32,000 nucleotides of DNA. It comes from Synechococcus sp. A15-28. Its GTDB lineage: Bacteria; Cyanobacteriota; Cyanobacteriia; PCC-6307; Cyanobiaceae. The notes under the pieces were generated by a model that searched no databases, had not been told where the DNA came from, and saw nothing but the letters and a program-made list of their open reading frames with translations. The stretch is from assembly GCF_014280175.1 (NCBI RefSeq), contig NZ_CP047931.1:1440001-1472000 (forward strand), read 5' to 3'. This document shows, piece after piece, positions 10,383 to 13,620 of the stretch. The position numbers and the translations under genes were made by a program. The number at the start of each line of letters is the position of its first letter. Position 1 is the first letter of the stretch.

Positions 10383-10640
10383 ATGTCCAGCACGAACACC
10401 ACGATCAACCTCCTGCTCGAGGAGGCTCTGAATGAACCGGACATCGGCACCACGAACCGGTTCCGATGGCATGCCACTGCGGTGGGGATCGCTGCGCTGT
10501 GGACGGACGAGTCATCTCCTACCACACCACCGTTTGAGGATGCCCTGCAGGAGGGACTCAAGGTGGGGCTGGACCTCAGTCGCGAGGAACGGGAATTCCA
10601 CCAGGTGCAACAGGGCCTGGTGCTGCTGTTTCACTCCTGA
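10383..10640 (+). CDS. Hypothetical protein (85 aa)
   Basis: ATG-initiated part of ORF 10236-10640, with coding-like composition. I recognise no family. Confidence 0.4.
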   Translation: MSSTNTTINLLLEEALNEPDIGTTNRFRWHATAVGIAALWTDESSPTTPPFEDALQEGLKVGLDLSREEREFHQVQQGLVLLFHS

Positions 10641-10646
10641 TCAGAA

Positions 10647-10733
10647 CGGAGAGGGTGGGATTCGAACCCACGAGGGTGTGACCCCTACACGATTTCGAGT
10701 CGTGCGCAATCAACCGGACTCTGCCACCTCTCC
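10647..10733 (-). tRNA. tRNA-Ser (anticodon CGA)
   Basis: The reverse complement folds as a type II tRNA. It has a 7-bp acceptor stem GGAGAGG/CCTCTCC with discriminator G, and an anticodon stem CACGA/TCGTG with loop CTCGAAA. It also has a long variable arm and a T arm GTGGG-TTCGAAT-CCCAC. CCA is not encoded. Confidence 0.9.
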
Positions 10734-10759
10734 ACACGCCAGACCGGCGTGGTCAGACT

Positions 10760-12588
10760 CTAAAGGCCAACCTCCATTCCGCCTCCCGCCAACCAGCGGC
10801 GCTGGACGCGATTGGGCTGGAACCCAAGCCAGGTGCCATCAACAGGACCGAGCCTGCGCTGACGTTGCAGGGCCAACAGGGCCTGGGGCCGAGGCAGCAG
10901 GCGCCAGCGCAGTTGACCGATCCGCAGCAGCATGGGCTGGCCACGGTCCGCGAGCAGCTCCAGGGACAGGCCATCGCTGCGAAGGCGCTGACCAAAGGCA
11001 AGACCGGCGCGACCCTGATGGGGGGCGACCACGCGATGCCCGAGCCCCTGCCAGCAGGCCATCACCTCACTGGCTACAGGATCCAGCAGCAACACCCAGT
11101 CCAGGCGCCCATGGCCATGGCCCGCCGCCAGGCGGCGGGCCATCCGGCAACTGCTGGCACCAGCGGTCAGACTGACCAGAGCAGCGCGGCCCTGATGCCG
11201 GGCCAACAGCCAGTGCTGCCGGCCGCGTTGAACTGCCACTACGCCATCCGCCAGCTGAACACGCCCGTGCACCAGCACGGCCATCAGCACGGATATCAGT
11301 GCTGCCGGCCGCGTTGAACTGCCACTACGCCATCCGCCAGCTGAACACGCCCGTGCACCAGCACGGCCATCAGCACGGATATCAGTCCCATCCGGCGCCA
11401 ACGCCCCCCTTCGAGCAACAACCAGGGCAGCAGGCCGATCACCAGCAACGCCACCACCCAGGGCTGGGGGTGACCGGTGAGCAACCGCGCAGCGGGCCAG
11501 TGGCTGATCCAGCGCACCATGGCGATCAACAGAGCGGCCAACTGCGCCACGGGCCAGGCCAGCAGCTGCAGGGCCGCCGCGGGCAACACCAGTGACGCCA
11601 GAGCCAGACCCATCGCGGAGAGGGTCAAGGGAGCCAGCAGCGGAGCCGCCAACAGGTTGGCCAGCAGGGCGTAGAGGGGAGCCGAGCCGAAGTGGAGCAG
11701 CTGCAGTGGCAGGGTCCAGGCCATCGCAGCGAGGGGAACCGCCAAAGCTGGTGCCAACCACCCGAGCCGCCTCGGCAAGCGCTCCGCCCACCACCGCTCC
11801 AGGCCAGGGGCCGTGAGGATCAACCCTGCCGTCGCGGCAGCGCTGAGCTGGAAACCGATCGAGCGGGCCCAGGCGGGATGCAGCAGCAGCATCAGGCTGA
11901 GGGTGAGCAGCAACACCCCGAAACCGCGGCTGCGTTCGCCGGACTCGCGGATCAGCAACGCCGTGGCCCCCATCAGCACGGCCCGCACCACCGATGGTTG
12001 GGCTCCAGCGCAGATCAAAAAGATCAACATCGCCAACGCCGCGAAGGCCAGTCGCAGGGAACGCCCCAGACAGCGACCCAGCGCCAGGGAAGCCCCCATC
12101 AGCACCGAGAGGTGGAAGCCTGAGGCCGCCAGGGCATGGGATAAGCCAGCAACCCGGAAGGCCTTGCGCAGATCATCGGGAAGCTGCACCTGGGCACTGC
12201 CCAGCACCAGCGCCGCCAGCAGCCCGCCTCGCTGGGCACCTGCCGCGGCCTGAAGACGGTCAGCGATCCGCCGCCGCAGATCAGCGATGGGCGTCCAGGG
12301 ACGATCAAGCACCTCGATGCGTGATGCACGCAGCTGGCTCCAGCTGCCCCTGGCCGCCAACCGTTCCGCCGGACCAGGCAGCAGGGGGTGAACACCGGCA
12401 GCAGGGCGTTTCAGCTGCCCGCGAACACGAATGCGCCAACCCTGGCGGGGTGGATCCGGGCAAGGACGGAGCTGAAGTTCCGTGCGTCCCGGACGGCGAA
12501 TCCCATCGAGCCACTCCACCGCCACAAGGGCGGAGCAGGCGTGATCAAACCGACGAGCATCCGCCAGCAGCCTGCCGGTCAGCTGCAC
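10760..12588 (-). pseudogene. comEC: DNA internalization competence protein ComEC/Rec2, reading frame broken by an 86-bp tandem duplication
   Basis: The N-terminal ORF (11296-12588) carries the competence-domain motif GLSHALAASGFHLSVLMG and many TM helices, and ends ...VAVQRGRQH-TGA. ORF 10760-11794 repeats ISVLMAVLVHGRVQLADGVVAVQRGRQH in another frame and continues WLLARHQG... to the stop at 10760. Deleting one 86-bp repeat copy fuses the two ORFs in frame. Confidence 0.8.
11211..11386. repeat. Perfect direct tandem duplication, 2 x 86 bp plus 4 bp (CAGT) of a third unit
   Basis: By direct reading, 11211-11296 and 11297-11382 are identical base for base (cagtgctgccggccgcgttgaactgcc...cagcacggatat). 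The next 4 nt (cagt) repeat the start of the unit. Confidence 0.95.
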
Positions 12589-12738
12589 GGGCGACCGCTG
12601 CTGTTGGATTGCCCTGGATGGATCAGATGATGGCGGCAGAGGTGCGCCCCAGAGCAGCCCCCGCAGCAGCAGGGTCAGGCAGAGCAGCAGTGCGCAGGTC
12701 TGAACGGAGGGGAAACGGAGCAGAGGGCGTCAAGCCGC

Positions 12739-13620
12739 TTACGCAAGCGTTCCCCCCTTCAGCAGGGGGAAGCCCAGCTCTTCCCGCTCCGCCAGCCAGG
12801 CTTCCGCCACCTTGCGGGCCAGGGTGCGGATCCGACCGATGGTGGCGGTGCGTTCGGTGACGGAGATCACGCCGCGGGCCTCCAACAGGTTGAAGGTGTG
12901 GCTGCACTTGAGCACGAAGTCCAGGGCTGGTGCCGGCAGCTTCTTCTCGATCAGATCAGAGGCCTCGGCTTCATAGATGGCGAACAGCTGCTTCAGCCTT
13001 TCTGGATCAGAGCCCTCGAAGTTGAAGTGGCACTGAGCCTTTTCAAAGGGCAGCCAGATGTCGCCGTAGTTGCGCTCCGCGTTCCAGCTCAGATCCCAGA
13101 TGCTTTCCACATCCTGGAGGTACATGGCCAGCCGCTCGAGGCCATAGGTGATTTCAATCGACACCGGCTTGCAGTCGATCCCGCCGCATTGCTGGAAATA
13201 GGTGAACTGCGTCACCTCCATCCCATCGAGCCACACCTCCCAGCCCACACCCCAGGCTCCAAGGGTGGGGGATTCCCAGTTGTCCTCCACAAAACGGATG
13301 TCATGGTCCGCCGCCTTGATGCCCAGGGCTTCCAGCGACGCGAGATAGGTCTCCTGGATACCGTCTGGGGAGGGCTTGATCAGTACCTGGAACTGGAAGT
13401 AGTGCTGGGCCCGGTTGGGGTTGTCGCCGTAGCGGCCATCGGTCGGGCGGCGACAGGGCTCGGGGTATGCCACAGCCCAGGGCTCGGGACCGATCGCCCG
13501 CAGCACCGTATGGGGACTCATGGTGCCGGCCCCTTTCTCGGTGTCGTAGGGCTGCAGCAGCAGGCATCCCTGATCCGCCCAGAAGCGGTTGAGGGTGCTG
13601 ATGATGTCCTGAAAATGCAC
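12739..13620 (-). CDS. glyQ: Glycine--tRNA ligase alpha subunit
   Basis: [36 protein letters not shown]...[16 protein letters not shown]...QVLIKPSP is canonical GlyQ. The ORF is open to 13692, but the family N-terminus fits the GTG at 13618-13620. Confidence 0.92.

Follow-up and report, generated by a model that had tools for sequence, protein, structure and literature searches.

Organization of the comEC locus

The window, by which we mean the entire 32-kb stretch of Synechococcus sp. A15-28 DNA that we analyzed, carries on its minus strand a comEC gene whose reading frame is broken by a tandem duplication (Table 1). The 430-aa ORF that runs from position 12588 to 11296 is identical to the proteins deposited for this clade III strain as QNI42818.1 and WP_286187787.1, and GenBank and RefSeq label this stub as an ordinary ComEC. 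The assignment of the gene to the ComEC family, as the original prediction had it, is supported by the match of its product to PF03772 (E 1.3e-49; score 169 bits, cut-off 23), which extends over aa 127-392 and over profile positions 1-266 of 270. The profile also matches the ComEC chains 9vc6_A (E 2e-31) and 30bt_A in the PDB. The protein passes the N-terminal subfamily-domain model TIGR00360 (102 against a cut-off of 36.5) and reaches 88 bits with the full-length equivalog model TIGR00361 (ComEC_Rec2), below its cut-off of 190; judged by these scores, it is a divergent member of the ComEC/Rec2 family and not a TIGR00361 equivalog. A Pfam search of A15-28 ComEC gave no match to DUF4131 or Lactamase_B. 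In the AF2 model, the N-terminal region resembles the OB folds of SSB proteins and the ComEC OB domain 9iew, a likeness that holds at the level of the fold only.

Direct comparison and TRF (period 86, 2.0 copies, score 352) demonstrate an identity of 100% between positions 11211-11296 and positions 11297-11382. The run of identity amounts to 90 nt, as the CAGT at 11383-11386 repeats the start of the unit; it does not extend leftward. This 86-nt perfect repeat is the sole long tandem repeat of the window, and its origin by chance is impossible. Since 86 equals 3 x 28 + 2, the duplication shifts the reading frame and forms a TGA at the junction (11298-11296), which takes its TG from the upstream copy and its A from the downstream copy and so spans the junction exactly. 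The downstream copy has kept its original frame with the C-terminal coding region but is offset by 2 nt from the frame of the upstream ORF. The novel two-copy junction reads ...CACGGATAT|CAGTGCTGCC..., while a one-copy arrangement would join GGATAT to CAGTCCCATC. When one copy was removed in silico, a single ORF of 580 aa resulted (...GRQHWLLARHQGRAALVS...) that ends at the stop codon at 10762-10760. The original prediction had described the two identical units with their trailing CAGT, a comEC frame that reads GRQH and then meets a TGA exactly at the junction, and a restored ORF of about 580 aa that continues to the natural stop at 10760; each of these points agrees with our data, the truncated ORF ending in ...VQRGRQH*.

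Table 1. Features of the interrupted comEC gene and its surroundings in the window.
Feature	Position	Strand	Remarks
Truncated comEC ORF, 430 aa	11296..12588	-	Putative OB-fold region and whole Competence (transmembrane) domain, aa 127-392
86-bp unit, upstream copy (gene orientation)	11297..11382	-	ComEC aa 403-430 (ISVLMAVLVHGRVQLADGVVAVQRGRQH) plus TG of codon 431; phase from the GTG at 12588
86-bp unit, downstream copy (gene orientation)	11211..11296	-	Identical to the upstream copy
CAGT microhomology	11383..11386		Same 4 nt at the unit start (11211-11214); at both segment ends in one-copy relatives
Premature TGA	11296..11298	-	Stop codon across the duplication junction
Stranded C-terminal coding region, aa 431-580	10760..11210	-	Natural stop 10762-10760; conserved; models as a reduced metallo-beta-lactamase-like fold
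Perfect 13+1+13 palindrome	11117..11143		ATGGCCCGCCGCC a GGCGGCGGGCCAT

The C-terminal domain severed by the frameshift

The domain of about 150 aa that is lost from the truncated protein is conserved and, according to structural modeling, probably adopts a reduced metallo-beta-lactamase-like (MBL) fold. W431, R435, G438 and R439, which lie at the junction, are invariant in 108 homologues, and D419, H436, H464 and D468 are conserved in at least 95% of them. In AF2 models with a pLDDT of 86-88, the duplicated segment takes in the terminal part of the last TM helix together with the first beta-strand. Sequence searches (Pfam, PDB) matched nothing outside the transmembrane domain, so that the C-terminal domain was recognized by fold comparison only; the MBL-fold proteins ETHE1, PqqB and YhfI align to it with TMq values of 0.45-0.58 and E values of about 1e-3, a likeness at fold level only.

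In the order of its parts, a putative OB-fold region, a Competence domain and a putative MBL-like domain at the C terminus, the picocyanobacterial protein follows canonical ComEC/Rec2 of the B. subtilis type (PDB 9vc6, 30bt). It is, however, shorter (580-610 aa, counted from a putative start codon, compared to about 800 aa), and its C-terminal domain is restricted to about 150 aa with HGHxRLDW in place of the HxHxDH motif. In characterized ComECs the C-terminal domain is extracytoplasmic, and inactivation of its nuclease in B. subtilis reduces transformation 10-100 fold (PMC8579336). The 430-aa stub of A15-28 might nevertheless keep some activity, since Competence-only ComECs of about 417 aa exist in some naturally competent bacteria (PMC6299819).

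Close wild relatives possess a single copy

Four metagenome contigs with 97.5-99.4% nucleotide identity to the window (L002, L003, L004 and L007) possess one copy each of the 86-bp unit, and in these one-copy relatives the unit is flanked by CAGT at both ends. In alignments of more than 8 kb with L002-L004, the duplication is the sole indel. All 11 near-identical proteins from the wild continue across the junction site, none of them duplicated, and the disabling lesion of A15-28 is absent from the intact orthologues of its closest wild relatives. This distribution shows the one-copy state to be the ancestral one. The notion that the duplication truncates comEC is borne out as well; the one-copy orthologues read straight through, and the two-ORF arrangement occurs in no relative. 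A search of JGI metagenome contigs for the two-copy junction gave no match, a negative without weight since the one-copy control itself matched 1 contig only, and no A15-28-specific proteins were found in Logan assemblies. An exact look-up of contigs encoding the 430-aa product gave no match either, although the cluster table lists this protein.

A perfected palindrome and the substitution pattern of comEC

At a distance of 68 bp from the duplication lies the palindrome listed in Table 1, which was made by three A15-28-specific substitutions at 11121, 11123 and 11124 (D460A, V461G). All relatives contain its pre-existing form, a 10/13 quasi-palindrome, and the affected arm reads ATGGACATCCGCC in all five of the closest relatives, A15-24 included; in A15-28 this arm is the exact complement of the unchanged one. 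All three clustered changes raise the complementarity of the imperfect inverted repeat, and the stability of the predicted hairpin increases from a dG of -9.7 (ancestral) to -19.8 kcal/mol (A15-28). Perfection of an imperfect inverted repeat by clustered changes is the defining outcome of quasipalindrome-associated template switching (Ripley, 1982; Dutra and Lovett, 2006; mechanism in PMC7202029), and by this measure A15-28 comEC carries a second template-switch-type mutation. Unlike the events recorded in quasipalindrome reporter studies, it occurs in a cyanobacterium, as natural variation that has become fixed, and adjoins what would be a direct-repeat template-switch product. We considered and rejected recombination as an origin of the clustered changes D460A and V461G, since 'AG' at both positions is present in one distant homologue only. 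A causal tie between the perfected palindrome and the 86-bp duplication is a matter of conjecture.

The window-specific codons of the C-terminal part comprise 0 synonymous and 3 nonsynonymous changes, compared to 37 and 15, respectively, in the pooled neighboring genes (p about 0.03-0.09). We do not take this as evidence that selection was relaxed past the frameshift: in the C-terminal part, all four substitutions specific to A15-28 lead to residues that are used elsewhere in the family. The three new residues (A460, G461 and L543) are common there, and two of these three stem from one template-switch event. No excess of damaging substitutions was found downstream of the lesion in the C-terminal part of comEC. 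Since the gene shows no decay aside from the duplication, there is no independent sign of relaxed selection before or after the event, and the missing decay signal fits a lesion of very young age. The original prediction had concluded from the zero divergence of the copies that the event was very recent. The copies are indeed identical, but their identity dates the event less firmly than claimed since, in a lineage that has diverged by about 1%, a stretch of 172 bp offers mutation little to hit.

Erosion of competence and type IV pilus genes in related strains

The comEC gene of the sister strain A15-24 is broken independently by deletions of 23 bp and 1 bp, and that of A18-40 contains an internal deletion (PMC7994388 Supplementary Data 1). 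The published tables report damage beyond comEC as well (PMC7994388 Supplementary Data 1). In A15-24 the pilins and PilC are missing, and ComEA and PilQ are present as fragments; the PilB and PilC proteins of A15-28 are without their N-terminal segments, and competence or pilus genes are damaged in other clade II/III strains. PilQ of A15-28 is reported to be without a match in the published BLAST table. Clade III also includes strains with an intact comEC, such as A18-46.1 and RS9915. Related genomes hence contain both pathway-wide and same-gene independent disabling lesions. Given the reported state of PilQ, PilB and PilC, reversion of comEC alone probably would not restore DNA uptake in A15-28.

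Origin of the duplication and fate of the gene

We favor, with a probability of roughly 0.7, a real and recent loss-of-function mutation of comEC by microhomology slippage. During replication, the nascent strand would have misaligned between the two CAGT tetranucleotides that lie 86 bp apart, and a slipped-strand or template-switch error would have copied the intervening 86 bp twice. The CAGT had been read as a slippage footprint in the original prediction, and a 4-bp microhomology is consistent with this; it is expected in only about 1.6% of random joins by analytic estimate and is typical of slippage, not of unmerged contig overlaps. As a consequence of the frameshift, only the 430-aa ComEC would be made, with its putative OB domain and full membrane channel and with the C-terminal MBL-like domain gone. 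Loss of this conserved domain would leave comEC crippled or dead, and the lesion may have been tolerated, under relaxed selection, because the lineage was already losing its machinery for DNA uptake and type IV pili piece by piece. A15-28 comEC is therefore most likely an early-stage pseudogene, a case of ordinary recent gene decay and not a regulatory device.

The true A15-28 chromosome might instead be one-copy, the extra 86 bp having been introduced by manual joins during gap closure. Assembly of the genome (BioProject PRJNA596899, Genoscope) relied on Illumina reads of 50-150 bp, both paired-end and mate-pair, and on CLC, WiseScaffolder and local reassemblies, and gaps were closed manually by contig extension in Geneious, with reads aligned to contig-edge motifs of about 20 bp; manual extension from short reads can create such repeats, so a local duplication could arise in this way. 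The absolute identity of the copies and the restriction of the junction to this one sequence among all collections fit such an error, and the GC-rich hairpin at a distance of 68 bp, very stable with its dG of -19.8 kcal/mol, could have lowered coverage and broken contigs. However, the authors remapped the reads and checked the coverage after closure, and the locus is unique and single-copy, so that only a real duplication or a real hairpin would have given contigs cause to break there. Junction k-mers that the reads do not contain cannot arise in a de Bruijn assembler, a period of 86 bp is unlike the usual k-mer overlap, and the microhomology would be expected in an unmerged overlap by chance only (about 1.6%). 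The correction of the adjacent quasi-palindrome shows real template-switch mutagenesis on the same stretch in the same lineage, and the sister genome of A15-24 contains different, non-duplicative lesions in comEC. Taking these observations together, we regard a finishing error as improbable but far from negligible, and the deposited sequence as probably correct.

The original prediction had also proposed that the duplication serves as a reversible off-switch for DNA uptake. In such a system, slippage would interconvert a two-copy (off) and a one-copy (on) state, as in pneumococcal cap3A, where, as summarized in PMC11163986 (Waite et al., 2001), perfect in-ORF tandem duplications silence the gene and revert precisely. 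The structure found in A15-28 is that of the cap3A off-state, template switching is known to delete tandem repeats of about 100 bp independently of RecA (bioRxiv 10.1101/2020.10.27.357855), and no secondary lesions have accumulated in comEC. Collapse to one copy by the same RecA-independent slippage is in principle possible; this capacity follows from the repeat structure, however, and does not testify to an evolved function. The forward step depends on a rare event at a microhomology of 4 bp, which argues against a two-way high-frequency switch. A second allele is present in no data, with 0 of 11 wild sequences duplicated, and the comEC genes of A15-24 and A18-40 were lost via deletions, not duplications. 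With PilQ reported missing, a flip of comEC would be without phenotype in A15-28, and natural competence has so far not been demonstrated in marine picocyanobacteria (PMC7994388). The off-switch proposal is not borne out by these data, and we consider an evolved or exploited phase-variation device very unlikely. We give equally little credence to the idea that the A15-28 culture is a flipping mixture of two-copy and one-copy cells, or to its variant in which palindrome perfection and duplication are a single compound accident of fork stalling, with the microhomology-mediated duplication triggered by the hairpin. If true, the mixture would represent heritable yet reversible heterogeneity of DNA uptake in a marine picocyanobacterium.

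It is hardly credible that the gene is functionally split into a 430-aa channel and a cooperating C-terminal domain translated separately by reinitiation inside the second copy. The duplication does leave each half with a complete boundary segment, a GTG (V405) and an ATG (M407) are present in the C-terminal frame 7 and 13 nt past the junction stop, and the 178-aa C-terminal piece models on its own as a compact domain (pLDDT 88). Yet no Shine-Dalgarno-like motif precedes the GTG or the ATG, the split arrangement is present in no relative, and the reinitiated product would lack a signal peptide and retain no more than some 11-13 residues from the last TM helix, which presumably puts the extracytoplasmic side out of its reach. 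Programmed frameshifting or readthrough at the junction was rejected upon inspection, since both a slippery heptamer and a +1 site are absent.

Relation to known systems

With its head-to-tail perfect copy, the ancestral CAGT direct repeat, the premature stop and the intact orthologues, the lesion of A15-28 comEC corresponds to a microhomology-mediated tandem duplication that generates a frameshift pseudogene. There is no essential difference from this class; A15-28 adds a new case to it, in a gene whose annotation does not show the damage, and its duplication opens no new mechanism. The resemblance to cap3A lies in the perfect in-ORF tandem duplication that turns the gene off, with loss of one copy expected to turn it on. 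For cap3A, many independent duplications and frequent reversion are reported within one population; comEC of A15-28, in contrast, is represented by one allele from one genome, shows no evidence of reversion and belongs to a pathway that is apparently already defective. Repeated independent disruption of comEC in related strains has been reported elsewhere in non-competent lineages, for example through IS interruption in Piscirickettsia salmonis (PMC12955456) and through loss in endosymbionts (PMC6299819). The Synechococcus lesions are, by comparison, small replication-slippage-type indels, not IS insertions, and the wild relatives closest to A15-28 retain intact genes.

The practical value of these findings lies mainly in annotation. 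Published presence/absence surveys score A15-28 and A15-24 as ComEC-positive, and the competence potential of clade III strains is overstated because comEC is broken in both strains. In the reading that we favor, A15-28 comEC would be a very young example of the piecemeal loss of type IV pilus and competence functions in oligotrophic clade II/III Synechococcus, whose closest wild relatives retain intact genes. The locus also offers a natural pair of putative template-switch events inside 270 bp, the first of which involves direct repeats and the second inverted repeats.

A tandem duplication interrupts comEC in Synechococcus sp. A15-28

The clade III strain A15-28 (Dore et al. 2020; chromosome of 2,341,586 bp) carries a 430-aa ORF (GenBank QNI42818.1; RefSeq WP_286187787.1) annotated as 'ComEC/Rec2 family competence protein'. 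As the original prediction had claimed, this frame is interrupted by a perfect 86-bp tandem duplication. TRF analysis (period 86, 2.0 copies, 100% matches, score 352) and repeat comparison placed both copies at the predicted coordinates, and no other long tandem repeat was detected by TRF within the 32-kb window. The run of identity spans 90 nt, with the CAGT at 11383-11386 repeating the initial four bases of the unit; there is no leftward extension. Translation of the minus strand confirmed the frameshift and a TGA at the junction, formed by the last two bases (TG) of the upstream copy and the opening A of the downstream one. In silico removal of one copy yielded the anticipated longer ORF (...GRQHWLLARHQGRAALVS...).

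Features of the window in and around comEC, and beyond it
Feature	Position	Strand	Remarks
Upstream copy of the unit (gene orientation)	11297-11382		86 bp
Downstream copy of the unit	11211-11296		86 bp
Truncated comEC ORF (stub)	GTG 12588 to TGA 11298-11296	minus	430 aa, C-terminal end ...VQRGRQH-stop
Stop of the restored ORF	10762-10760	minus	580 aa
Open frame 5' of the annotated GTG	12589-12738	minus	TGA at about 12732-12730
Perfect 13+1+13 palindrome	11117-11143		27 nt, inside the stranded comEC C-terminal coding region
tRNA-Ser(CGA)	10646-10734	minus	about 25 nt downstream of the comEC stop, same strand
Convergent ORF	10386-10640	plus	85 aa, beyond tRNA-Ser(CGA)
Small SRP RNA, bacterial	1656-1753	minus	RF00169, 60.8 bits

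Upstream of the annotated GTG the frame stays open, with codons for a hydrophobic stretch and for the conserved WGAPLPxxSDP motif. The TTG start codon of comEC in relatives is CTG in A15-28 (about 12672), so that the GTG is a provisional start for this strain. GlyQ is shortened from 320 to 317 aa by a window-specific C-to-A change at 12740, which makes TAA of a codon (12739-12741) that is TCA or ACA in relatives. Since the next gene past tRNA-Ser(CGA) is convergent, the premature stop in comEC has no obvious protein-coding polarity target.

Predicted architecture of ComEC and of its truncated form

The restored protein contains the Pfam Competence domain (PF03772, aa 127-392, E 1e-49) and the ComEC N-terminal domain TIGR00360, and scores 88 bits against the full-length equivalog TIGR00361, below the 190-bit cut-off. 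A profile from 108 homologues matches the solved ComEC structures 9vc6_A (E 2e-31) and 30bt_A over the membrane domain only. A full-length AlphaFold2 model, built from a 99%-identical orthologue (pLDDT 86.5, pTM 0.82), is confident and consists of a beta-barrel at the N-terminus, which structurally matches SSB-type OB folds and the ComEC OB domain 9iew, followed by a helical membrane domain and a C-terminal alpha/beta domain (CTD). When the CTD was modelled by itself with the sequence of the window (pLDDT 88), nearly all of its best PDB matches had the metallo-beta-lactamase (MBL) fold (TMq 0.45-0.58, E about 1e-3, probability about 1.0), including ETHE1/persulfide dioxygenases, PqqB, YhfI, RNase J and class B lactamases. 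The restored protein thus probably follows the canonical order of OB, channel and MBL domains, though shortened and divergent.

With secondary-structure limits taken from the coordinates of the full-length model (shifted by 28), the unit encodes aa 403-430, in which the terminal 15 residues of the last TM helix are followed by a linker, beta-strand 1 of the CTD and the first two residues of strand 2. The stub retains the entire channel but not the CTD. W431, R435, G438 and R439 are invariant in the 108 homologues and D419, H436, H464 and D468 are conserved in at least 95% of them, a pattern which points to constraint on the CTD within the family. Abolishing metal binding in the ComEC CTD of B. 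subtilis lowers transformation 10-100 fold (PMC8579336), whereas competent bacteria with Competence-only ComECs of about 417 aa exist (PMC6299819). Given the constraint on the CTD and the B. subtilis data, weighed against these short proteins, we infer that ComEC function has likely been lost in A15-28.

One-copy comEC in close relatives and the age of the duplication

Each of four metagenome contigs with 97.5-99.4% nucleotide identity to the window (L002, L003, L004, L007) contains exactly one unit-like match at this locus; their alignments break at the duplication only, where both copies of the window align with the one copy present. In these one-copy sequences CAGT stands at either end of the unit, and unit and flanks agree with the window base for base; the duplication is the only indel relative to L002-L004 in more than 8 kb of alignment. 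Moreover, 11 of 11 near-identical wild proteins (P0001-P0004, P0197-P0203) read GRQHWLLARHQG. In this comparison with orthologues of close relatives, which had been proposed with the original prediction, the one-copy contigs and the read-through wild proteins show that the two-ORF arrangement is not conserved and that one-copy comEC is ancestral.

Zero divergence between the copies, from which a very recent event was deduced earlier, is weak evidence of age, because just about 1-2 changes are expected in 172 bp at ~1% local lineage-specific divergence. Of the window-specific codons after the stop, 3 are nonsynonymous and none is synonymous; the pooled neighbouring genes have 37 synonymous and 15 nonsynonymous ones. 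We did not count this as decay under relaxed selection, since the new residues (A460, G461, L543) are all frequent at their positions across the family. The gene looks freshly broken.

Lesions in competence genes of related strains

The comEC gene is also broken in the clade III sister strain A15-24 (CP047960.1; locus L008, 4001-5803), where 467 or 439 aa are annotated together with a 117-aa remnant. Nucleotide alignment revealed two deletions, one of 23 bp following ...SWISHWP and one of 1 bp some 486 bp beyond it; wild cluster-mates of this protein have 607 aa. A15-24 has been counted as ComEC-positive in surveys despite this pseudogene. Intact ComEC is present in A18-46.1 (580 aa) and RS9915 (608 aa). 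According to Supplementary Data 1 of Aguilo-Ferretjans et al. 2021 (PMC7994388), A15-28 has no match for PilQ and its PilB and PilC miss N-terminal segments; A15-24 is without pilins and PilC and has PilQ (79 aa) and ComEA as fragments; ComEC of A18-40 has an internal deletion of ~38 aa (VPLAAM|GLALAS) and a truncated N-terminus; and the clade II strain WH8109 is without ComEA and ComEC. Natural competence is not known for marine picocyanobacteria (PMC7994388). Given this damage to comEC, pilus and competence genes, the duplication joins other, independent lesions of a pathway undergoing erosion in these lineages. Two frameshifted comEC variants occur in environmental assemblies, P0084 (369 aa, NCBI) and P0202 (422 aa, ENA); both are of the same clade and end in out-of-frame tails, representing either natural frameshift alleles or assembly errors.

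Origin of the duplication

With a rough probability of 0.7, we regard the duplication as a real and recent product of microhomology-mediated slippage. Slippage between short direct repeats (CAGT) would have duplicated the 86 bp and truncated ComEC ahead of its conserved MBL-like domain, a lesion that would be tolerated because DNA uptake was already dispensable or defective in A15-28. The proposal that CAGT is a slippage footprint gained support: slippage between short direct repeats predicts such junction microhomology, and a random join would share four or more bases in about 1.6% of cases (analytic P(k) = (k+1)(1/4)^k(3/4)^2).

The A15-28 genome was assembled with CLC from Illumina short-insert paired-end and 4-10-kb mate-pair libraries, scaffolded with WiseScaffolder and 'closed by manual finishing' (PMC7522525), which involved reassembling locally, extending contigs by hand with reads in Geneious and checking coverage at the end (PMC4559175). 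Manual gap closure beside a strong hairpin is a plausible source of error and might have introduced the second copy, but we consider such an artefact rather improbable. An unmerged contig overlap gives no reason for junction microhomology, the locus is unique sequence at which a de Bruijn assembler needs junction k-mers present in the reads, the authors remapped reads and checked coverage (PMC4559175), and another mutation of template-switch type lies in this stretch. A junction scan of JGI metagenome contigs gave 0 matches, with the one-copy control matching 1 contig only, so that this zero carries no weight.

A perfect repeat could in principle collapse precisely, and the reversible off-switch for DNA uptake envisaged earlier would resemble the phase variation of the pneumococcal capsule gene cap3A. 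That system is defined by coexisting alleles, recurrent duplications and a phenotype, whereas a single allele and a predicted effect are at hand for A15-28 comEC; the 11 wild near-identical sequences are all one-copy, and the comEC lesions of A15-24 and A18-40 are deletions, so that the switch was not borne out. A functional split gene, with the CTD translated separately from GTG or ATG codons that follow the junction stop in the correct frame, is unlikely, since these codons have no ribosome-binding motif before them and the product would be without a full TM helix or signal to reach the membrane side where the CTD works; inspection of the junction found no programmed-frameshift motif.

Slippage duplication is a well-known type of mutation and not mechanistically new; the new instance lies in a gene publicly annotated as intact and is useful for correcting competence-gene inventories of marine Synechococcus.

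A second template-switch signature in comEC

Four nucleotides in the C-terminal coding part (10875, 11121, 11123, 11124) are specific to A15-28 in comparison with five relatives. Those at 11121, 11123 and 11124 change GACATC to GCCCGC (D460A, V461G), and the left arm ATGGACATCCGCC has become ATGGCCCGCCGCC, the exact complement of the unaltered right arm GGCGGCGGGCCAT. The resulting palindrome is the window's only perfect inverted repeat with 13-nt arms; all relatives examined, A15-24 included, keep a 10/13 quasi-palindrome. With the A15-28 changes, the hairpin predicted for single-strand DNA is stabilised from -9.7 to -19.8 kcal/mol. Recombination is an unlikely source of D460A/V461G, as 'AG' is found there in just one distant homologue. 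Such perfection of an inverted repeat is what defines quasipalindrome-associated template switching (PMC7202029), and tandem-repeat expansion and deletion have been ascribed to a related RecA-independent template switch (bioRxiv 10.1101/2020.10.27.357855). One may conjecture that slippage nearby was promoted by the new hairpin, or that a single accident gave rise to both mutations; the locus is a clean case from nature of two template-switch mutations side by side. At 10875, a C-to-A change specific to the window (W543L) gives positions 10870-10879 (GGGCCAACAG) the same 10 nt as 11200-11209, which ends one base short of the duplication, an identity that may be coincidence.
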